From an uncultured virus (IMG/VR IMGVR_UViG_3300047170_000110) (lineage: Duplodnaviria > Heunggongvirae > Uroviricota > Caudoviricetes), in IMG/VR virus record IMGVR_UViG_3300047170_000110: 64,000 nucleotides of DNA. One strand, written 5' to 3'. A program made the translations under genes and the position numbers. The stretch's first letter is position 1. Each line of letters starts with the position of its first letter. The notes below the pieces were generated by a model. It did not search any database and was not told where the DNA came from. It saw nothing but the letters and a program-made list of their open reading frames with translations. Positions 11,458 through 63,929 of the stretch are shown piece by piece.

Positions 11458-12645
11458 CTATCGGGCGCGAACGGGCATCCAATAAAGCAGGTTTTTATGC
11501 TCGAATTGCTGATACAGGATCACCGTTTGGGTGAAGATCTCCATGTTCAGTTCGTGGTTCTTGTCCATGCATTTCAGGTAGTCGCGCAAGCAGGCCGCTT
11601 GGAAGTTCACCCGCATGGGGGTGGGTGCGGCATTTTTGGTCTTGCCGTCGATCTGCACTTCGCTGTGTGAAAGCCGGGCTGAGATCGTGTAGGTGTCATC
11701 GATGATCGAGAATTCGAGAGGCACCTCCTGGAACTCCTTCTCGCCTCGGTAGAAAACGGTAGCCCTCTCCACTTTTTTACCGAATTCGGCCGGGTCGAAC
11801 GTCAAGCAGGAGTCCTGCTTGGCCCTCGTTTCGGTCGCACCCGTCGGGATGTGTTCCATCGGTTTCACGAAATTCGGTTGCATCCACCGGAGCTTCTTGA
11901 AGCCTTGTGTGTTGAGTTTTACTTCCGCCATCGTCAACCGGTTCGACTGCTTTAGCACGAGTGCCGAGAAGTCCTCGATCTTGGTGAAGGGGGTGAGGAA
12001 GTCGTGCAGGGTCATCAGCTTCGTGAAGTTGTGGACCGCCTGGAAGTCGTCCGAGCGGAACGTGTGCCAATAGGCCCCTAGCTCGTCTTCCGAGTAGACC
12101 TGGAACTTGTCGTCAGCGAGCTTCTCGAACGCGATCCGTTCGGGGATTTTTTTCTTCTGCCCGAAGCTGTCGGGGAGGTCGAGATTCGCGTACAGCTCGT
12201 TCATGAGGTCTTGGGCGAAGATGATCCCGGGGGTCTCGTTGAACTGGTCGAGGTTTTGGTGGTTGCGCTCCCACGTATCCCCGTTCCGAAGCGGGATGCG
12301 GAAGTTTTGGCCGGATGCCATGAATTGGACACGCTTGTCGCCCGATGCCCGGCCCGATGCAGGCTTGACGAGATAGAGCGGCTCCACGTCGAACGGGTAG
12401 TTGGACAGATAGGACATGTCGAGGAAGATGGGTTCTTCAAGCTCTTTCGTATCGGCGACCAAGACGGCTTCGATGTAGCTGGAATCCGCGCCGACCGAGA
12501 CATGCAGGTCGTCGCCCTCGCGGGCGAGCCGAAGCTCCAAGCCCTTCTTCGATTCCGTCGTGGAGGCGAGCCACTTGGAGGCGGCCTCGATGAACATCGC
12601 GAAGGGTTTTACGGGGAGTTGTATTTTTGCGTTCGCTTTAGCCAC
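11458..12645 (-). CDS. Probable DNA sliding clamp (beta-clamp-like)
   Basis: ~395 aa, three-domain size, C-terminal VNFQAACLRDYL...LLYWMPVR resembling the beta-clamp end; next to the helicase, with a clamp loader elsewhere in the window. Confidence 0.55.
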   Translation of the reverse strand: MAKANAKIQLPVKPFAMFIEAASKWLASTTESKKGLELRLAREGDDLHVSVGADSSYIEAVLVADTKELEEPIFLDMSYLSNYPFDVEPLYLVKPASGRASGDKRVQFMASGQNFRIPLRNGDTWERNHQNLDQFNETPGIIFAQDLMNELYANLDLPDSFGQKKKIPERIAFEKLADDKFQVYSEDELGAYWHTFRSDDFQAVHNFTKLMTLHDFLTPFTKIEDFSALVLKQSNRLTMAEVKLNTQGFKKLRWMQPNFVKPMEHIPTGATETRAKQDSCLTFDPAEFGKKVERATVFYRGEKEFQEVPLEFSIIDDTYTISARLSHSEVQIDGKTKNAAPTPMRVNFQAACLRDYLKCMDKNHELNMEIFTQTVILYQQFEHKNLLYWMPVRAR

Positions 12646-19158: not shown

Positions 19159-20673
19159 TCAAAGGGCCACGGCCCAGAAGTAAGCGTTAGGATCGGCAGG
19201 ACCCGTCGCACCTGTTGTTCCCGATCCCGTAGGTCCAGTAGATCCGGTGAAGCCTGTGTTGCCTTGCACACCTGTGGCTCCTGTCGAGCCTGTGTTGCCT
19301 TGCGCACCTGTTGGCCCTGTAGAGCCTGTTTGCCCGATAGCACCCGTAGGACCTGTCGCTCCACCCGTCCCGGTCGCCCCGGTGACCCCGGGAGCCCCGT
19401 CATTCCCCGTGGAACCTGTCGGACCTGCACCGGTTGCACCGGTGCTTCCTGTCGAGCCCGTGGGTCCAACGATCCCCGTATTACCTGTCTGACCGGCAGC
19501 TCCGGTCGGGCCTGTAACACCAGTGGTGCCTGCGATACCCGTGAGTCCGGTTGCTCCCGTTCCGCCTGTTTGTCCCGCAGCTCCCGTAGGTCCAGTCGAT
19601 CCGGTGAAGCCCGTGTTCCCCTGCGCGCCAGTGACGCCCGTCGGACCCGTCTGTCCTACAGCCCCCGTGGGACCAACGATCCCTGTGAGACCTGTCGCAC
19701 CGGTTCCGCCGACGGCTCCGGTGGGTCCCGTTACTCCATCCGCACCGCTAGGTCCGGTCGATCCCGTGAGGCCAACTGCGCCAGTGGTGCCTACGGCACC
19801 CGTCTGACCCGTCGATCCTACGGCCCCTGTGGCCCCAGTGATCCCAACCGCGCCCGTTTGGCCCGTGATCCCAACGGCCCCAGTCTGTCCGGTCAGACCA
19901 ACTGCGCCCGTTGATCCGACAGCCCCCGTAGCTCCAATCGCTCCGGTCGTACCGACCGCACCGGTTGTGCCTGTGATCCCCACGGCCCCAGTGGCACCCG
20001 TGATGCCGATGGCACCCGTGCTTCCAGTGATTCCCACCGCACCGGTCGCGCCTGTGACTCCAATAGCCCCAGTCGCACCCGTGATTCCCACCGCGCCCGT
20101 CGCGCCCGTATTTCCATCCGCTCCGGTAGAACCGACCGCTCCGGTCGGACCCGTCAGACCAATTTGACCCGTGCCTCCCGCGTCACCTGTCGCGCCAGTC
20201 GGGCCGGTATTCCCGGCAGGACCAGTCGGACCCGTGTTGCCGATCGGATCGAGGCGTTCGAACATATCGGAATTTCTAGCCAGCTCGACCAGATAGGGGG
20301 GCAATCCCTGGAGGTCCGGGCTCACATCCCAAGCGAGGCCCTTCAGTGCGGAGGGCGCGCAGACAAAGCCCTCCTGTCCTGTGTAGTTGTTCGGATCTTC
20401 GATCGCATCTGTATCCGCGTATTGAACCGTGAAAGTAGGGGTGATGGGATCCGGCGTATCGATCGACAGCACCACGTACCGCGATACTGCACCTGGATTG
20501 ACGGCACTGGAAGTCGTGTCCAGAAAAAAGAGACATCCGGCTTCGAGATTGCTTCCAGAGAAGATCCCCGCACCGTCCAGGACGGTTCCTGAGATTTGGA
20601 ATTGATTCGGTTCACCGGAGACGGGAACCGAACTGGTGAGAGTAAATTTCGCGGAAAAGTAGTTAAGTGCCAT
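19159..20673 (-). CDS. Collagen-like (Gly-X-Thr) fibre protein B1
   Basis: ~140-aa N-terminal domain then a long GXT/GAV run; ends AYFWAVAL. Confidence 0.9.
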
Positions 20674-20679
20674 CTTTTA

Positions 20680-23600
20680 TCACCAGATGAGTTGAACGTA
20701 GTTATCAGCGTTAGCTGTCAATCCAGTGAGCGTCATCGTTACGACCCCGTTCCCTGCACTTCCGGAAACAGCAGCGGTGGAGGTCAGCACACCCGCTCCG
20801 TAAGTTCCCGAGGTGTAGCGAACCGCCAACGGACGCTGGATGTTCCCCAAGACGTTTTGCCCCGTCGTTTCTGGGAAGGTGATCGTCACGCTTGTGTTCG
20901 CTCCGATTTGAGCGGCCGAAAGATAAACTTTCATGCTCAAGTAGAGGACGGTCGAAGCGGGTCTCGTGATCGTCACGGCATTTCCGCTCAAAGCCACCGA
21001 AGTGGTGGCGATGTCGGAAGCGGGTCCAGCGACCATCAGCTGCACGGCCGGAGTTCCGTTTGTCAGAAGCGAAACCGTCGAACCGGTTGCCCCTGCGGCA
21101 CCCGTCGGACCGGTGGAGCCCGTAGCTCCTGCGGCACCTGTCGGACCAGGAACAGTAGAATCTGCTCCGGTCGCGCCCGTCGCGCCCGATCCGGTGGCTC
21201 CGGTAGCACCTGTGGCACCTCCGGCTCCAGTAGATCCAACCGCACCCGTGCTTCCGGAAGATCCCGTCGCACCAGTTGTTCCGGCAACTCCTGTAGGCCC
21301 TGCCGCACCCGTGCTTCCGGTAGGACCTGTCGCTCCACCCGCCCCGGTCGCCCCGGTGCTGCCCGAGCCGGTCGCACCTGTAGCTCCTGCCGCTCCAGTT
21401 GCACCTGTAGCGCCCGATCCCGACCCACCGCCAGAGGCGGCCAGATCGTCGAGCGCTTGACTCACGTTGGTCGGCACTACTGCCCAATTTGAAGGCGTAC
21501 TCGGGGTGTAGGCGAGCGTACCGCTGATGCCTCCCTGCGCGACGATCGGTCCGCCGAAGTAGTTAGTTCCGCCCTGGGAGTAGAGTGCGTAGTTGGTTCC
21601 GGCAGCCGTCGGCGTTGCGATGTAGATCCCGTAGAACGTGCCAAAGGTCCCGCCGTTGTTCGAGGGTGCCGCAACGTAGGCGCCGTAGCCGGTACCGATC
21701 GTTCCATTGGCGTTGGAGATCGCGACCGCCAAGTAAGCGCCGTAGGCGTTCGTGATGGTACCACCGAACACGCAGTAGACTTCGCCATCGAGAGCGGTCG
21801 CGTACGTCAGAGTCCCGGAACCCTGGTGGTTCACCATGCCCGAGACCCCTTGTCCCAGGTACATGTTTTGGGTGTTGCCGTTGTTTGTGACGACCGAACC
21901 GCCGAAAGCCTTGAACTGGGCGACGCTCGCGGATGCCGGATTCGGTGCGATCAGGCTCTTCAAGCCGTAAACAAATCCGCCCAAGGATGTGGAGGCTCCG
22001 TTGATATTCAGCGATTGCAATGTACCGAGAGAAGTAAGGGAAGAGGCCGTCACGTTTGGGGCGAGCGTAGTGCCAGTGAGGGCCGACGCCGCAGGCGGAG
22101 TCGCGGCCAAGAAGTCTAGGCCATCCTTGACGCTGCCTGGAACGGAGGCCCCCCAGTTGCTGGGGGTAGCGGGGATGTAATTCAGGTCGATCGCCGAGTT
22201 GCCCTGCACGACCCGGGTTCCGGTCAACACGTCGATCGATTCGTTGCGCCACACGTTCGAGAGAACGTAAGGGGCGGTTCCGGTCTTGTTGATCTGCGCG
22301 AAGGTCGAGCCAGAGATCTGGAGCGACACGTTCAACAGACTCATCATGTCGGGAGAGTTGGCGGTCGAGGTGATCGTGGCTCCGGAAGTGAACCCGCGAC
22401 CTCCGTCGATGATTAGGCTACCGGCGGTTTGCGTGATCGCGCCGAGCGATTCGTTGTCGTACAGCGCGAGCGTGACGTTCGAGCTGTTGAGCGTGATGGG
22501 GGGTGCGCCGCGAACGCGCCACGTGCTCACCTGCGAGCCTGCCGCCGGAGTGCCCCCGATATTCAGCGGGCCGCTGATCGTACAGTCCACGAACTCGTGC
22601 CAGTGAGCCCAAGATCCCGTGTACTGGACACCGCCACCGCCACCGAAGTCGATATTGGTGTGGTAATTGCGACCTTGCGAGCTGTCGATCAAATCGGGCT
22701 GCGTTCCGCCCGGGTAGGCGATCTTGAAGTCCTTGAAGCGGATCCGGGTGGAGGCGCCGGTAATCGTGAAATTGCCGTTCACGCGGATAGCTTGTGAATC
22801 GACGATCCCACCGACACCTTGGATCGTCAGGTACGCGCCGTAGTCGGCGATCGTGACGTTCTCGGTAGGGGAATCGTGCAGCCAGATGACCACGTTGGGT
22901 TCATCGGAAGCCTGAGCCTGGTTGACGGCTGCCTGGATGCTCGTGAGCGGTTGTTCGAACGTACCGACCTGGGTGCCGGTGTACGTGCTCAAGACATGAA
23001 TTTCGTAATAGCCTGCGGCAGGCGCGATCGGACCGGTCGATCCGGTAATTCCGGTCGCACCCGTGGCGCCCGTCGCTCCCGTAATCCCATCGTTCCCATC
23101 GGCTCCGGAAGGACCGGTGGATCCGCTTGGGCCAGTTACTCCCGTGTTTCCCGTCGCTCCCGTTCCCCCGGTTTGGCCTGTGGCGCCAGTTCTACCGGCC
23201 ACCCCATCCGTTCCGGTGGCACCCGTATTTCCCTGATTTCCGGGGACACCCGTAACCCCTTGAGGTCCTATCGCGCCCGCCGCGCCCGTCCCTCCTGTTC
23301 CTCCGGTGGCGCCCGCCCCCCCCGTGTTGCCAGTCCCTCCGGCCGCACCCGCCGCGCCATCCGTCCCGGTCGCACCCGTTGAGCCTGTCGCGCCATGCGA
23401 TCCGTCGATTCCCGAAGGACCGGTTGCCCCTGCTGCACCGACTGCACCCGTCGCTCCGGAAGGGCCAGTCGCTCCCGCCAATCCTGTCGGACCGGTAGAA
23501 CCTGTTTGGCCTGCGCCGGTTGGACCCGTCGCACCCGTGATTCCTACGCCTGTCGCACCTGTGGAGCCGGTTGCTCCTGTTCCGCCTGTCGCACCTGTTG

Positions 23601-23775
23601 GGGCACCTGCGGGACCGGTCGCACCCGTCGCTCCTGTGGCACCGGAACCGGTCGCACCCGCGTTACCCAACCCCAAGTCAATTTCCGATGCAGCTTCATC
23701 GCTTTCCAGAGCTGTCTGTAAGAGGAGGTAGGTTTTTGGGGATAAAAATTTGGGCGGATTCTGCGGTTGGCTCAT
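20680..23775 (-). CDS. Collagen-like fibre protein A1 with central beta-helix-like domain
   Basis: Two GXT tracts flanking [14 protein letters not shown] (beta-helix start); repeated YxPxTPSNW...ALDxLAA. Confidence 0.9.
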
Positions 23776-37109: not shown

Positions 37110-39332
<2,223 letters not shown>

Positions 39333-39346
39333 AGAAGGGATAGATC

Positions 39347-45588
<6,242 letters not shown>

Positions 45589-45589
<1 letters not shown>

Positions 45590-48490: not shown

Positions 48491-49258
48491 ATGCGATACG
48501 AAGGCCGCTGGTGCGACTCTCCCAAGACCGAGGTGAGTCTGAAACAAATGGCCGCACCCTACGATAACATCTTCGTCGGTTCGGATCCGTGCGACGGATT
48601 CAGCCGCGCAGATGCGGAAAGCTTCCAAGCCTTTTTGAACGTCTCGGATTCGGAATGCAATTACTTCGATCCGCTCCCCGGCCAGAGGATGCACTGGCAC
48701 CCCATCAACGAGATGGGTTACTGGGGCTACGCTCCGCTTTTTTACTGCAAAAAAGTGCTCGACTACCACTACGGGCAGAAGAACAGAATTTACCTTCACT
48801 GTCACGCGGGGGCGCACCGTTCCCCCATGATGGGCTTCTGCTGGCTTCTGTCCCGAGGGCATACGGTGAAAGACGCAGCCAGGATTCTCTGGAACGGAGA
48901 TAATCCCCGGAGTGGTCACTGGGAAGTGGGCGCATTCAAGCGCGACTTGACGATCTATCGGGTGCTGCCACGGAGGCTCATGGAATTCTATCGGCGGGTG
49001 AAAGAGAATCCGACCTATAGCCTGATGGGATACCTCTACAACCACCAGGACGGGTTCATTGAGAACACTCGCGAGGTGAAAGGCAATCTCTCGGATCAAG
49101 AAATGAAGATGCTCTGGGAAAACATGCCCAAATTCTACGAGAAGGATCCGGTAGGCGTAGATCAGGCAATGCGCGAGCTGTTCCGCAAGGGGGTCGAGCA
49201 ACTCGACATCGCTAAGCCCCTTTTCAAAATGTTCGAAGTGAGCGAGGATGGGGTCTAG
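48491..49258 (+). CDS. Cys-based protein tyrosine/dual-specificity phosphatase
   Basis: IYLHCHAGAHRS (HCxxGxxRS). Confidence 0.85.
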   Translation: MRYEGRWCDSPKTEVSLKQMAAPYDNIFVGSDPCDGFSRADAESFQAFLNVSDSECNYFDPLPGQRMHWHPINEMGYWGYAPLFYCKKVLDYHYGQKNRIYLHCHAGAHRSPMMGFCWLLSRGHTVKDAARILWNGDNPRSGHWEVGAFKRDLTIYRVLPRRLMEFYRRVKENPTYSLMGYLYNHQDGFIENTREVKGNLSDQEMKMLWENMPKFYEKDPVGVDQAMRELFRKGVEQLDIAKPLFKMFEVSEDGV

Positions 49259-49264
49259 TGGTGT

Positions 49265-49341
49265 TCATCCTTAGCTCAGTTGGTTAGAGCACGAGCCTGT
49301 TAAGCCCGGGGTCCCTGGTTCGAGTCCAGGAGGATGAGCCA
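49265..49341 (+). tRNA. tRNA-Asn(GTT)
   Basis: TCATCCT/AGGATGA acceptor stem, CTGTTAA loop, TTCGAGT T-loop, encoded CCA. Confidence 0.95.
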
Positions 49342-49342
49342 C

Positions 49343-51751
49343 TCATTTCAGATCAGAAGGGTCCATGTAGCCGGACATGACCGTCGTCCCACCCGTTCCC
49401 GGCGCCATCACGTTGGCCACGCGGCTGCGACCCGCAGGCGTGTTCTGGGAAGCGCGTGGTGCCGTATAGCGGGAGAGGCATTGAATCTCAGCCTCGTATC
49501 GGCGCATGTCGAGCATCGCTTTGGCGGAATTGAAAGAGCTGTATCGATTGAGTGAGTCGCGAGCGGAAGCTGCAATCTTTTGCGCGGACTTCGGATCCAC
49601 GGGGAGCGCCGATACTCCCATGCGGTTCAGCACGTACGCCATCACGTGGGCCTTCTCGGAACCGAGCTTGTGGTAGAGCACGTTCATGAGCGCCGACTGA
49701 TCCTTGAAGAGATCCGGGCTGTGGTCCTTCATGAGGGACGAGACGGTCTTGTTCGCTTCCGATAGGCCTAGCGGTCCACAGCGGTTATTTCGCCAGATCG
49801 CGATTTGGGAAAGCTTCGCCACAGGACTCGCACGGCCGATCTTCTCAGCCTGTTTGTAGAGGGACTGCTTGACCTCTTCTGTTTCCGGTGCTCCGCCTTC
49901 GGGTTCTCCTGTCGGGATCTCGTCGGAATTTTCCGGGACTTCGACCCGGCCTTCGTCTCCCCCCGCTTCCTCTTCCTCGCCGCCGCCTTCCGCTTCTTCG
50001 GCTTGCTGCTTGAGGAGGGCGATCTTCTGGCGGCTCTTGATGTCGGTCTGCTGGTCCTGCTCGATGTTCTTCGGGTTGAAGCCTGCGGCGGTCGCCCACT
50101 GGACGAGCGTGACCGGGTAGTCGTTTTGCTGGAGCTTCTCCAGAACGTCGAGGGCCTTCTCGTCTTGGTTCGGCTTGAGTTGCTTGGACCACTCGATCGT
50201 AGGGACCTGGAGATCTCCGACCGGCAGCTGCATGATCTGCCGCTGGGTCATCCGCGAAGCGGTGATCTGATTCATCCGAGCCCAGACGGGAATGGAGGAG
50301 TCGTACTGCGCCAGGTATTGGTAGCGTTGAAGGGTCTCTTCTGCCGTACCGAAGGGTTTCGGAGTCGGGGTCGTGCGGATACGGTGGGCCAGTTCCGCAG
50401 GCGAGCGCTTCACGAATCCGTGGATTCGGGCGATCGTCGGGAACAGGGTCTTCATGAAAAACTTGTGCGTAATCTTCGACCGAAGCGTTGCGAGAGTTTC
50501 AACAAAAACCGAACGAGCCTGCTCGGCGTTATTGTAGGTCGCATCCCCCGAGAGCAGTGCATCCGAGATGCCGATGCACTGCATTTTATACTTCGCGAAA
50601 AGCTCCAATTCGTCCGACCACTTGTAGAAGTCGGCCCCTCCGCCGACCGGTTCGGAGATGTCCACGCCCGTGCGGGTCGAGATGACGCCGCCGTTAGGGT
50701 CTTCGTTCGCTTGGATGATGAGACCCGCAATCGCGTCCATTTCGTCGATGCTCGGTTCCCAAACCCCGTCGATCCCGGCTTTGACCTGGATGAAGGAGCG
50801 GGCGCGGCGGCGGGTGGAAGCGAGTTGGGCGTTCAGGAGCGCTTTTTCGATCGCCCAGAAGTAAAGCGTCCGTGTCAGAAGGGACGTGCCGATGGAATCG
50901 TTGGGTGCGGCTTTTCGTGCGAGGTAAATGGTTGAGATCGGATCGAGCGGCAAGAAGCCCTGTTGCTTGCTGGCGGCCTCCAAGAATGCCGGAGGCAGGG
51001 AACGGCGGGCGTCCATGTCGCGCGGATCCGTGCTGCTGAGGAACTTTTTGAATCCGGCCGAGAGGGTGAAGTCGCACTTGGGGTCGAAACCGTACACCGG
51101 CAGCGGCGTGATCTTGATGAAGTCAGGATCGTGCGGGACGACGCCCGAGAAGATTCCGCGTCGCTGGTCGTAGATGAGGGAGGAGATATTTTTCCCGAGC
51201 ACCAAAAATTCGTAGGTGAGATCGGGCATGAGGAGTTGGACGTTCAAAGCGTCCATGCACTCCTGGTAGACTTTGAGGATCTCGTTGTCCTCGATTCCAG
51301 CGAGCGAGAAATCGGACCAAGGCAAGCCTCGGATGATGTCGATCCCTGGACCGATGGTGGGGTCGCGCAGGTAAATGCGGCGGTAAAGCAGGTCCAGTCC
51401 GGCCGCGTCCCGGGGGATCCAGTCTTCGAGGATCGAACCCTCTTCGAGCTGGTCATAGACCGGGTTGTAGTGGTCGATGTTGTAGCCGCCCGGCCCGCGT
51501 CCGCCGAAACCTGCGCCACCCCCGCCACCCCCGGGGCCGCCTGCGCCCATACCTCCGCCCGGTCCCCCCGCGTAGCCGCCTCCGCCTCCGAAGTTGGAGA
51601 CGATGCGCGAGCGGGTTTTTTTAGCCGACTCGGCGGAAGCGGCGAAACTGGCCGAACGGGAGCCGGTCACGACGTTGAGTGGATCCGCGTCGGGAGTTCT
51701 GAATTTATCGTACGGACCGTTGAGGGTCGCGTATTTGCCAAACTTGAACAT
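49343..51751 (-). CDS. Portal protein
   Basis: YRRIYLRDPTIGPGID, GTSLL.R, LLSGDATYNNA; downstream of the terminase. Confidence 0.8.
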   Translation of the reverse strand: MFKFGKYATLNGPYDKFRTPDADPLNVVTGSRSASFAASAESAKKTRSRIVSNFGGGGGYAGGPGGGMGAGGPGGGGGGAGFGGRGPGGYNIDHYNPVYDQLEEGSILEDWIPRDAAGLDLLYRRIYLRDPTIGPGIDIIRGLPWSDFSLAGIEDNEILKVYQECMDALNVQLLMPDLTYEFLVLGKNISSLIYDQRRGIFSGVVPHDPDFIKITPLPVYGFDPKCDFTLSAGFKKFLSSTDPRDMDARRSLPPAFLEAASKQQGFLPLDPISTIYLARKAAPNDSIGTSLLTRTLYFWAIEKALLNAQLASTRRRARSFIQVKAGIDGVWEPSIDEMDAIAGLIIQANEDPNGGVISTRTGVDISEPVGGGADFYKWSDELELFAKYKMQCIGISDALLSGDATYNNAEQARSVFVETLATLRSKITHKFFMKTLFPTIARIHGFVKRSPAELAHRIRTTPTPKPFGTAEETLQRYQYLAQYDSSIPVWARMNQITASRMTQRQIMQLPVGDLQVPTIEWSKQLKPNQDEKALDVLEKLQQNDYPVTLVQWATAAGFNPKNIEQDQQTDIKSRQKIALLKQQAEEAEGGGEEEEAGGDEGRVEVPENSDEIPTGEPEGGAPETEEVKQSLYKQAEKIGRASPVAKLSQIAIWRNNRCGPLGLSEANKTVSSLMKDHSPDLFKDQSALMNVLYHKLGSEKAHVMAYVLNRMGVSALPVDPKSAQKIAASARDSLNRYSSFNSAKAMLDMRRYEAEIQCLSRYTAPRASQNTPAGRSRVANVMAPGTGGTTVMSGYMDPSDLK

Positions 51752-61569: not shown

Positions 61570-61606
61570 GGATAGACCTGAAATTTCTACAAGACAGGAG
61601 ACTAAA

Positions 61607-62056
61607 ATGAGCTACCGGGATTACGACAAAACAGAAATCGTCGATTTCAAAACGCTAGAAGGCAAAATCCTCAAGAACATCGAAAACAAGGGCGACGAGT
61701 TGATTTTCACGACTACCGAGGGGGAGACTTATCGCCAAGTTTACTATGATGACTGCTGCGCAAGCTGTAGCATCGAAGAGATCCACGGCGACCTTGTCGA
61801 CCTGATCGGCTCACCCATTCTTATGGCCGAAGAGGTTTCCAATACTGCGCCTGATGCGGAGCTACAGGCAAAGCGGGATAAGGAAAAAGCCGACACGCTA
61901 GCCAAGGGGGAATACTACTCCGATTACCAATATGAGAGCGAAACGTGGACCTTTTACAAAGCCGCGACGATCAAAGGCTCAGTGACAATCCGCTGGTACG
62001 GCTCATCAAACGGCTACTACTCGGAGTCGCCTACTTTTGAGAAGTTTTGGGAATAG
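61607..62056 (+). CDS. Conserved small phage protein (DCC...WTFYK...WYGSSNGYYSE)
   Basis: AGGAG RBS before ATG 61607; recognisable motif. Confidence 0.8.
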   Translation: MSYRDYDKTEIVDFKTLEGKILKNIENKGDELIFTTTEGETYRQVYYDDCCASCSIEEIHGDLVDLIGSPILMAEEVSNTAPDAELQAKRDKEKADTLAKGEYYSDYQYESETWTFYKAATIKGSVTIRWYGSSNGYYSESPTFEKFWE

Positions 62057-62063
62057 TCCTGAG

Positions 62064-62590
62064 ATGACTGCGCCCCACCCTATTGTTCTAGTCCTGGCGG
62101 CGACAATGAAAGAGTTTGAACACCACGCAATGGTGAGGTTTGAGGAAGGCGCAGAAGGCGAGCTGAACAGATCGCGCGGGCGGGCGGTAATCGATGGGGT
62201 TGAGTATCAGTGGATTAAGGATCGAAACACCGTCAGAGGTCGAAGCGGCTTTGAGTTTGAGCGGTGGGGCCGGAGCTGGCTTCACCCAGAAGCGGAAGAA
62301 ATTGAACAAGAGATACGGGTTAGGCTTGGACGCTAGCCCGTGCGTCCCGGGTCTAAACCGTGACCAGTAAAGGGAAACTCATGTTGAATCAATACACGCA
62401 CTTCGATATTTGCCAGAATGAAAACTGCGAGCGCAAGTGGTGTGTGGATCGCAGAAATGCGAAATGCATAAAAGAGGACGGTTGTGAGATTGAAGCAAAG
62501 AGCAAAACCAATCGGTGCAAATGGTGCCACACTAAGTTTTTCTGCTCGGGTTACGGCGAGTGCCCTCTGCACGGGGACCATGGGCCATGA
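62064..62590 (+). CDS. Two small hypothetical genes (62064-62336; ~62381-62590 Cys-rich)
   Basis: Co-oriented ORFs. Confidence 0.5.
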
Positions 62591-63228
62591 GTGATCTGAG
62601 CCTAGCGGCAGAGCTTTTGACGGGGGAGGAGCAGGGGAACAACCTAAAGCTCTTTTACGCGAAATGGTACGACCAGTTCGATCCGTACACGCTACGCGTG
62701 TTTTGCCACTACTACGCCCGCTACGGTATCCCGACGATCGAGTTGATCGATTGGCTGAAGGAACAGATCGCGGGCCGTAGTGCGATCGAGATCGGAGCGG
62801 GATCCGGTGACTTAGGCTTCCACCTCAACATTCCGATGACGGACAACTACAATCAGGAAATGCCGGATGTAAAAAAATATTACGCGATCACCGGTCAACC
62901 GACGATCCGGTACGGGAAGGACGTGGAGAAGCTCGACGCGCTGGAAGCTCAGGCGAAGTACAAACCCCAGGTCATCATCGGCTCCTGGGTCACTCAGTGG
63001 ATCGATCCCAATCTTCCCCCACCTCCGGGGGGAGGGAACATGTATGGGATCAAGGAGCCCGAGCTGTTGGAGCGGCTGCCTCCCGGCGGCAGTTATATCC
63101 ATATCGGCGCGCATGGGATTCACGATTTCAAGAAGATCTTGGCGCTCCCTCACGAGACGTATGAACTTCCGTTTCTCCGCAGCCGCCGACCGGACAACGT
63201 CGTTTACGTCTGGAACAAACCCCTTTGA
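62587..63228 (+). CDS. SAM-dependent methyltransferase-like protein
   Basis: AIEIGAGSGDLG motif I; VEKLDALEA; IIGSW. Confidence 0.7.
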   Translation: MSDLSLAAELLTGEEQGNNLKLFYAKWYDQFDPYTLRVFCHYYARYGIPTIELIDWLKEQIAGRSAIEIGAGSGDLGFHLNIPMTDNYNQEMPDVKKYYAITGQPTIRYGKDVEKLDALEAQAKYKPQVIIGSWVTQWIDPNLPPPPGGGNMYGIKEPELLERLPPGGSYIHIGAHGIHDFKKILALPHETYELPFLRSRRPDNVVYVWNKPL

Positions 63229-63234
63229 TTCGAT

Positions 63235-63342
63235 GTGGTCGTTCGCCTAAAGGGTAAGGCACCTCCCGGCGGAGGAACGAGGGTGAAGTGGCGCTGAAGT
63301 AGCCCTCGTGGTGGAGAGTTCGAATCCCTCCCGATCACACCA
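63235..63342 (+). ncRNA. Atypical tRNA-like RNA (108 nt, CCA end, no canonical anticodon loop)
   Basis: GTGGTCG/CGATCAC acceptor stem + A-CCA; GCC/GGC D-arm with GG; GTTCGAATC T-loop; CCTCC-CGGC-GGAGG arm; ACGAGGG...CCCTCGT extra arm. Confidence 0.8.
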
Positions 63343-63372
63343 AAAACAAAGGGCCCCTTGCGGAGCCCTTTG
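63342..63372 (-). terminator. Rho-independent terminator of the tail-tube gene (possibly bidirectional)
   Basis: CAAAGGGC...GCCCTTTG hairpin followed by a T-run on the minus strand. Confidence 0.7.
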
Positions 63373-63407
63373 CCGAGGAGGTAAGTGGTGACAAAGCCGC
63401 TTACGCT

Positions 63408-63929
63408 TTACTGAACTCGAATGCGGGAGACGTAGGCCAGCTGACCGGTGATCTTGTGGATGTAGTTTCCATCCGCCGTCCACGCGTCGGGGTTCTTCGT
63501 CTTCAGCCAGCAACCCGAATATTGGTACACGCGGTACGGATCGGTGCCCTTGTACAGGAACTCTTGGATGACGAAAGGCCGCGTCTGGTCGGTCAGATCC
63601 TGGAACACGCTCGTGTAGCCGAGCGTGATTTCCAGCTCTTCATCCCACACTTCCGTGCGGGCGAAGCTGACCGTGAAGCCGGTGGCTTTGCCAGGGACGT
63701 AATCGACAGGCTTGCCGATGGTCACCTTGGACAATTCGTAAACGTGCTCGCCGTCCCGGTTGTAGGCGCCTTCCGGCTGCCAGGAGTTGATGCGGCCCAC
63801 GATATTCCCCGCCACGACCAGAGCGGCCCCGTGGTAGGTCATGGTCGTCGGGGCACCTGGATCGGTGAAATCCAGGGTGGCGCTTTGCACGCCGAAGGCA
63901 TTGGTGGCGAATGGACTTGGATTCGGCAT
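63408..63929 (-). CDS. Tail tube protein (contractile-tail type)
   Basis: VGRINSW...HVYEL...YVPG...LTDQTRPFVIQE...YSGCW; AAGGAG RBS; class-L motif 63954-63966. Confidence 0.75.
   Translation of the reverse strand: MPNPSPFATNAFGVQSATLDFTDPGAPTTMTYHGAALVVAGNIVGRINSWQPEGAYNRDGEHVYELSKVTIGKPVDYVPGKATGFTVSFARTEVWDEELEITLGYTSVFQDLTDQTRPFVIQEFLYKGTDPYRVYQYSGCWLKTKNPDAWTADGNYIHKITGQLAYVSRIRVQ

Follow-up and report, generated by a model that had tools for sequence, protein, structure and literature searches.

Phage transfer RNA (tRNA) genes are usually read in one of two ways: they help with codon usage, or they make up for host tRNAs that defence nucleases have destroyed. What such a gene could be when the tRNA body is kept and the anticodon side is sealed is the question raised by a 108-nt element near one end of a 64,000-nt stretch of DNA (the window) from an uncultured virus of the Caudoviricetes (IMG/VR record IMGVR_UViG_3300047170_000110). 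The element occupies 63235–63342 (+), 658 nt short of the end of the window, and reads and folds as a cloverleaf plus one extra arm; coordinates throughout are window positions, with the element on the + strand. A tRNA body sealed in this way would point to a third use of phage tRNA genes, either as a processing signal that shapes phage transcripts or as a stable CCA-ended decoy or acceptor. We found that the element is a real, unusual tRNA derivative. It is a clean example, with predicted ends at 63235 and 63342, for which a working RNA and a dying tRNA gene are both in play. A class of such phage RNAs may hide among the sequences that tRNA finders reject; a single case without relatives cannot carry that claim.

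The tRNA body and its closed anticodon arm

The acceptor stem, A discriminator, encoded CCA, D-loop GG and TTCGAAT sequence listed in the initial annotation of this locus were all found in place (Table 1). The tertiary and conserved nucleotides that are kept comprise U8, A14, G18G19 and A21 (those of the D arm at their canonical places), the G53:C61 pair, the UUCGAAU loop, A73 and CCA. A Levitt pair A15:U48 may form as well, with U 63312 taken as position 48 if the T stem is counted as 6 bp. Parts read by RNase P, by 3' trimming and CCA enzymes and by T-loop modifiers are retained in the 7-bp acceptor, A73-CCA and elbow. Both strands of the window were scanned for a T loop and T stem combined with a perfect 7-bp acceptor and NCCA. 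This shape scan found three sites, tRNA-Asn, tRNA-Glu and the odd element, compared to a mean of 0.067 sites per shuffle in 60 dinucleotide shuffles (4 of the 60 had one site), showing that descent of the element from a tRNA is secure.

At least four length changes separate the element from a standard tRNA: its linker counts 3 nt, the loop 4 nt and the arm 33 nt, and the T stem is one position longer. As annotated, acceptor plus T stem amounts to 13 positions (7+6) with a G4:U wobble, and CCTCC-CGGC-GGAGG stands at the place of the anticodon arm, with neither U33 nor a 7-nt loop. Standard pairs make up 28 of the 29 that were modelled. The annotation's further statement that pairing is intact in all arms was upheld for four helices, at probabilities of 0.90–0.99, and not for the T stem, which has an A.C mismatch and a probability of 0.28.

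The extra arm was also present as described, and its core, given earlier as TGAAGT-GGCGC-TGAAGT, is better described as an 11-nt tandem repeat. The second repeat unit and the C before it spell CUGAAGU, which resembles the anticodon loop of a Phe-type (GAA) tRNA; the string lacks a proper stem of its own, and the idea that it marks a pseudo-anticodon arm was set aside for this reason. No second copy of the 33-nt hairpin, which would have marked it as a repeat element, was found in the window with up to 3 mismatches. A CCTCCCGGCGGAGG look-alike inside the upstream open reading frame (ORF; 12/14) is within chance, with 4 found against 1.69 expected. Readings of the element as an anti-Shine-Dalgarno sequence (CACCUCC) or a mini-ORF (GGAGG then GTG AAG TGG CGC TGA) were judged coincidental, as by-products of the GGAGG/CCUCC stem.

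As encoded, the element cannot decode, since the RNA has a loop of 4 nt where the anticodon loop should be and so offers no pairing partner to a codon. ARAGORN called two tRNAs in the window (tRNA-Asn and tRNA-Glu) and none at the element, and its tmRNA search of the element was negative. At gathering score, Rfam returned the same two window tRNAs and no match at the element. The tRNA family RF00005 (gathering score 29 bits) gave nothing at the element at E ≤ 0.5 on the window, and a search of a 401-nt stretch at E ≤ 10 gave six weak unrelated matches and no tRNA, tRNA-Sec or tmRNA. The initial annotation had proposed a non-decoding RNA, and this agrees with both the 4-nt loop and the missing calls; beyond these six weak matches, a known Rfam family, which it had named as grounds for abandoning the proposal, was not matched.

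To ask how far the sequence stands from a callable tRNA, 3015 variants with single deletions of 1–55 nt were each run through ARAGORN. Calls were returned for 34 of the 3015, and every one of these variants lacked 9–13 nt inside 63283–63304. All 34 calls had an abnormal anticodon, either a two-base 'gg' or a forced 'gcg', read from the closed hairpin, indicating that the body passes as a long-arm tRNA once the arm is shorter and that no single excision restores a decoder. A covariance model (R1) built from the element alone, which as a one-sequence model is a weak probe, aligned ordinary class I tRNAs (His, Ala and Thr) over their full length, the 33-nt arm being the sole part missing. This alignment, together with the acceptance by ARAGORN of a shortened arm, shows that the body of the element is a regular tRNA body.

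Table 1. Features of the element and its immediate flanks
Feature	Position	Strand	Basis or remark
Upstream ORF, 222 aa from GTG	62560–63228	+	stop codon 6 nt before the element
Leader TTCGAT, 6 nt, from ORF stop to acceptor stem	63229–63234	+	sequence
Acceptor stem, 5' strand GUGGUCG	63235–63241	+	7/7 pairs with 63332–63338, one G:U (G4:U); mean pair probability 0.98
Linker UUC, 3 nt (usual: 2)	63242–63244	+	sequence
D arm GCCU / AAAGGGUA / AGGC, 4 bp, 8-nt loop	63245–63260	+	stem probability 0.90
Single A between D arm and closed hairpin	63261	+	sequence
Closed hairpin CCUCC-CGGC-GGAGG, 5 bp, 4-nt loop, at anticodon-arm place	63262–63275	+	probability 0.92
Single A between closed hairpin and extra arm	63276	+	sequence
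Extra arm, 33 nt: 7-bp stem ACGAGGG/CCCUCGU, 19-nt loop	63277–63309	+	probability 0.99
11-nt tandem repeat in extra arm, TGAAGTGGCGC / TGAAGTAGCCC	63284–63305	+	sequence comparison; 9/11 alike
GGU between extra arm and T arm	63310–63312	+	sequence
T arm GGAGAG-UUCGAAU-CCCUCC, 6-position stem, one A.C mismatch	63313–63331	+	canonical-register mean probability 0.28
Acceptor stem, 3' strand CGAUCAC	63332–63338	+	sequence
Discriminator A73	63339	+	sequence
Encoded CCA	63340–63342	+	sequence
G+C-rich hairpin, scored as intrinsic terminator for the convergent gene	63345–63374	-	terminator scan
Convergent virion structural protein gene, phrog_985	63408–63929	-	88% identical in relative G001

Setting and predicted processing of the element

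We see an even chance that the element is a tRNA-derived, non-decoding RNA that is kept for its tRNA body and released by tRNA-processing enzymes where the transcript of the methyltransferase-fold gene upstream ends. The element would be co-transcribed with this gene. A promoter scan found no promoter-like site in the 6-nt leader; the sole promoter-like site of the scan (62825–62853) lies inside the upstream gene. Host RNase P would then cut between 63234 and 63235 and the 3' end would be trimmed to the encoded CCA (63342). The upstream mRNA would thereby end 6 nt past its stop codon, and a stable CCA-ended 108-nt RNA would be released. The anticodon-side half, consisting of the closed hairpin and the 33-nt arm, would be free as a handle for something else, or for nothing. 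The tRNA-Asn of the window (49256–49343) likewise starts 6 nt past an ORF stop, in this case that of a phosphatase-like ORF, which suggests that co-transcription followed by processing is the normal tRNA route of this phage. The CCA of tRNA-Asn abuts the stop of the convergent portal gene, and its anticodon stem also has a non-standard (A.C) pair.

The main argument for constraint is that at least four length changes coexist with the near-complete set of standard pairs and with the tertiary nucleotides. Neutral decay with so many insertions and deletions should, by our inference, bring many stem-breaking substitutions. When folded together with 60 nt upstream and 45 nt downstream, the cloverleaf persists.

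The upstream gene is annotated from a GTG, and an ATG at residue 10 is the more likely start; Atlas holds the sequence of this ORF from residue 10 on. The protein has no Pfam or PHROG family and carries the S-adenosylmethionine (SAM) motif IEIGAGSGDLG. There are 228 metagenome homologues, and the closest homologues of the gene, P0002 and P0003, are 74% and 64% identical, with a further protein, P0004, at 100%. An AlphaFold model of the protein reached a predicted local distance difference test (pLDDT) score of 94, and nearly all of the PDB matches listed by Foldseek are SAM-dependent methyltransferases, with template modelling (TM) scores of 0.30–0.43. The remaining listed matches are a structural-genomics hypothetical protein, two whole mitoribosome-assembly entries and a bifunctional sulfoxide synthase. 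The motif, the model and the structural matches agree that the element follows a methyltransferase (MTase)-like gene, as had been noted from the sequence, with a predicted class I SAM-methyltransferase fold.

On the other side of the element, the G+C-rich hairpin is followed on the + strand only by TTTG, and weak look-alikes of small-RNA terminators are among the Rfam matches to the 401-nt stretch at E ≤ 10. The convergent structural gene beyond it is the last gene that is syntenic with relatives. The window as a whole encodes a terminase, a portal protein, a sigma factor, a DnaB-like helicase and four collagen-like fibre genes, and is part of a large, uncultured jumbo phage from moss samples. 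The four collagen-like tail-fibre genes lie at 19159–23775 (-) and 37128–45589 (+), the largest encoding 2080 aa, and contain many repeated stretches that match tail-fibre PHROGs. At 61576–61609 (+), upstream of a DUF7448 gene, there is a sub-threshold Rfam match to Mu-gpT-DE RNA (25.7 bits against a gathering score of 49, E 0.12).

Relatives and rival explanations

Several observations weigh against a conserved, working RNA. G001, a 223-kb contig that is the only close relative found in IMG/VR (terminase 70% and neighbouring structural gene 88% identical), carries different DNA behind the structural gene, with nothing of the element beyond 22 nt of a T arm and no homologue of the MTase-like gene. 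Two more distant relatives (contigs from runs X5 and X6) part from the window precisely where the structural gene ends, at 63408. The stretch with the element also occurs in three further runs from moss metagenomes, and the two that were compared, X3 and X4, are identical across the element; this identity counts in favour of the RNA, yet it reflects one phage population and not independent conservation. Runs X1 and X2 may be the source, no RNA run was listed among those that contain the stretch, and the four runs compared were all contigs. Exact words from the element and its D arm (a 30-mer and a 17-mer) each had 0 matches in IMG/VR, a T-arm/acceptor 21-mer had 0 in 185,579 species genomes, and a search of 83 whole viral records with the covariance model brought up no sequence of this kind. 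Among the collections searched, the element is thus a singleton. Its structure adds to these points, as fold energy by itself is unremarkable (z score of -1.1 for the whole element, with 24 of 200 shuffles as good, and of -2.06 for the inner 48 nt, with 15 of 500), the T-stem mismatch sits at the second innermost position, and the minimum-free-energy fold takes a slipped, competing T-stem register. The 11-nt tandem repeat resembles replication slippage, which is typical of unconstrained sequence.

The initial annotation had treated a normal tRNA at this place in relatives as the mark of a pseudogene. The relatives checked have neither a normal tRNA nor the element at the locus, where synteny ends at 63408, and the outcome is neutral; with no relative of either kind, neither covariation nor decay is shown. 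G001 has five ordinary tRNAs. One further observation in this contig concerns an 86-nt tRNA (G001:C1 ~12072-12154; L093 1498-1583 (-)) that has a long-arm (class II) shape and a UGU (Thr) anticodon, is called tRNA-Thr by ARAGORN and scores 53.5 bits with the Rfam tRNA model; threonine tRNAs are normally short-arm. In run X3, the sole difference from the window within the compared stretch is a T>G at 63224, which puts R in place of L as the final residue of the MTase-like protein; the database protein P0004 has the same variant.

Other searches returned partial or unrelated sequence. Five of 50,697 phage records matched in blastn, none covering ≥80% of the query: three match the T arm (query 84–122), are annotated tRNA-Phe and come from jumbo phages (E 0.1–0.5), and two match the 3' flank hairpin (query 124–147) where no feature is annotated. 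A 17-mer of the extra arm had 3 matches in IMG/VR, with flanks that by eye are not tRNA-like and apparently coding, and an 18-mer had 1 match in the species genomes, on a contig of a Brocadia metagenome-assembled genome with no ARAGORN gene and flanks that are not tRNA-like. The covariance model gave 3 weak matches (≤28.5 bits) in 2 records, which are ordinary tRNA-His, tRNA-Ala and tRNA-Leu, and 0 in a second batch of 34. Metagenome contigs were also searched with a pattern of hairpin stem with free loop, gap and T loop, which was too loose; at least 80 loci were returned, and of the 80 read by eye none is like the element; the window's own sequence was not among the 80. Ten of the metagenome loci, on different contigs (L011, L020, L039, L042, L050, L051, L064, L070, L075 and L087), share a near-identical stretch of ~120 nt with a CCTCC-NNNN-GGAGG hairpin and GTTCGAATCC ~38 nt later, a conserved element.

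The association with the upstream gene, which the initial annotation had pointed out, was not found to be conserved. As a single query the gene had no viral relative, and a 40-sequence profile of its protein gave 123 viral relatives, of which 80 loci were kept. None of these 80 loci carries a CCA-ended long element beside the gene in the shape scan, and ARAGORN found 8 ordinary tRNAs in 5 of them. A separate observation was made on a 416-kb viral contig (L136 711-790 (+)), where an 80-nt sequence has a perfect 7-bp acceptor and a GGTTCAAATCC T arm, receives no ARAGORN call and folds without regular D or anticodon arms; it is possibly another odd tRNA look-alike in a megaphage.

The main rival is a recently crippled phage tRNA gene on its way out and without function, an explanation that we take seriously and consider less probable than retention for the tRNA body. 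Such a gene would have lost 3 nt of its anticodon loop, its variable arm would have been enlarged by an insertion and an 11-nt slippage duplication, and its remaining tRNA features would reflect too little time to decay; processing may persist, serving nothing. The singleton status, with absence from G001 and the X5 and X6 relatives, fits this history, as do the position in a variable accessory stretch where synteny ends, the slippage-type repeat, the weak whole-element fold and the 0 of 80 loci with the MTase-like gene. The same is true of the A.C mismatch, the odd 3-nt linker and the additional position in the T stem, and of the missing Rfam tRNA score at E ≤ 10. Decay sits less easily with changes that are confined to loops and junctions or add whole pairs, leaving 28 of 29 pairs standard, with a replaced anticodon arm and an extra arm that are both perfect hairpins, and with conserved tertiary nucleotides that are all kept. 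An 18-mer search of the genome collection and a 17-mer search of the viral one also show the D arm to be no recent copy of a tRNA in either, and dead DNA is usually lost quickly from phage genomes.

A decoding product would still be conceivable if the element were a precursor in which an intervening sequence or editing restores a 7-nt anticodon loop, for example by way of CUGAAGU, and we regard this as quite improbable. That string resembles U33-GAA-R37, the direct repeat TGAAGT...TGAAGT could mark excision points, and the weak T-arm matches in blastn are to tRNA-Phe of three jumbo-phage records. Introns in tRNA genes are reported in Lak megaphages (PMC6784885). The intron mode of ARAGORN, however, found no gene at the element at default or 90% thresholds, and at 80% it forced a tRNA-Ala(ggc) in which a 21-nt 'intron' precedes the anticodon, a call that was disregarded. 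None of the 3015 single deletions gives a standard anticodon loop, CUGAAGU has no 5-bp stem of its own (its flanks are G/A mismatched, with at most 3 pairs), and two separate excisions would be required. We know of no bacterial enzyme for such splicing. Least probable of all, and to our minds barely credible, is that there is no RNA gene here and the locus either acts at the DNA level, for example as a site of recombination or attachment that copies part of a host tRNA gene, or resembles a tRNA by chance. The element does lie at the very point where synteny with relatives is lost, and recombination in phage genomes commonly takes place at tRNA genes. Attachment sites, however, copy the 3' part of a host tRNA only, whereas the element has the D and T arms and an acceptor stem with both its strands; the absence of the 21-nt T-arm/acceptor word from the species genomes and of an integrase among the 49 ORFs scanned against Pfam points the same way, and the shuffle control excludes a chance look-alike.

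If the RNA is released, its use could differ from transcript processing. A decoy for anticodon nucleases, one of the roles first suggested, is unlikely, as the part those enzymes read is missing. Enzymes that recognise the acceptor end, the elbow or the long arm could possibly take the RNA as a decoy or substrate, or the RNA could serve as an amino-acid donor. A more specific version, by analogy, is that the RNA sequesters host defence enzymes whose recognition involves the CCA end and a long variable arm, or as a variant that it is an anticodon-independent amino-acid acceptor or donor outside the ribosome, and this we hold to be unlikely. The charged amino acid would presumably be Leu, to which A73 and a long arm point under the usual identity rules. 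Nucleotidyltransferase toxins of the DUF1814/AbiEii-MenT group are described as adding cytidine monophosphate to the tRNA 3'-CCA, with the long variable loop as a key determinant (PMC11162799). If the proposal is true, a CCA-ended body that has an oversized arm and no anticodon would sequester a MenT3-type toxin and leave translation undisturbed.

Comparison with known tRNA-like systems

No phage tRNA-like gene of this architecture was found in a limited full-text search of the open-access literature, which is no proof of absence. Compared to a canonical phage tRNA (RF00005, or the tRNA-Asn and tRNA-Glu of the window), the element shares the 7-bp acceptor, the discriminator with encoded CCA, the 4-bp D stem, the 8-nt D loop with A14, G18G19 and A21, the UUCGAAU T loop and the place directly behind an ORF. 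It differs in lacking U33 and a 7-nt anticodon loop, in carrying a 33-nt arm at the variable region, in an acceptor/T branch of 7+6 with an A.C mismatch instead of 12 bp (7+5), and in a linker at positions 8/9 of 3 nt instead of 2. In class II tRNAs (Leu, Ser and Tyr), too, a paired extra arm separates the anticodon stem from the T stem, and A73 is shared with Leu and Tyr, presumably, under the same identity rules. In contrast, the extra arm here, at 33 nt with a 19-nt loop, is far above the usual size, there is no anticodon, and the D arm is of class I type (4 bp with an 8-nt loop), whereas the class II tRNAs of G001 have 3 bp and 11 nt.

Three further tRNA types were considered and rejected. 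Bacterial selenocysteine tRNA has an 8/5 branch, a 6-bp D stem and a UCA anticodon, while the element is 7/6 with a 4-bp D stem and no anticodon. The G3:U70 pair and tag frame of tmRNA are replaced by G3:C70, a wobble at 4:69 and 108 nt without a tag frame. Allo-tRNAs, as described by Mukai et al. (2017, PMC5389517), have a 12-bp branch divided 8/4 or 9/3 and a usable anticodon, unlike the 13 positions (7/6) and missing anticodon loop of the element. The intron-bearing tRNA genes described for Lak megaphages (Devoto et al. 2019, PMC6784885) are also over-long and left unclassified by bacterial tRNA finders, but become recognisable once one anticodon-loop insert is removed, whereas no single deletion makes the element a standard tRNA.

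Another parallel is YrlA, described as a non-decoding RNA that shows the D and T arms and the tertiary pairs of a tRNA-like fold and that in M. smegmatis is cut by RNase P and receives CCA, and that is also present in phages (Chen et al. 2014, PMC4201824). YrlA is described in the same source as permuted, with a closed acceptor-like stem, ends that form the Ro60-binding stem and a gene beside that of Ro60 (PMC4201824). The ends of the element form the acceptor stem instead, 0 of the 49 ORFs have a Ro60/TROVE, RNA-ligase or other tRNA-related Pfam domain, and there is no Rfam match. The stable RNAs 'species 1 and 2' of the T4 tRNA cluster, small RNAs with tRNA-type precursors and tRNA-like ends, are a possible parallel by general description.

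The mascRNA and menRNA of MALAT1 and MEN-beta and the t-elements of plant mitochondria are tRNA-like modules for 3'-end processing. These modules are eukaryotic or organellar and conserved across species, whereas the phage element is known from DNA and without conservation seen; the element also keeps a full D arm and an extra arm, and no Rfam family of that kind matched. Like them, it is tRNA-shaped, non-decoding and placed directly behind a transcript unit, with an RNase P cut and a CCA end expected. By this analogy, the element would work most like the tRNA-shaped processing modules of MALAT1 and plant mitochondria.

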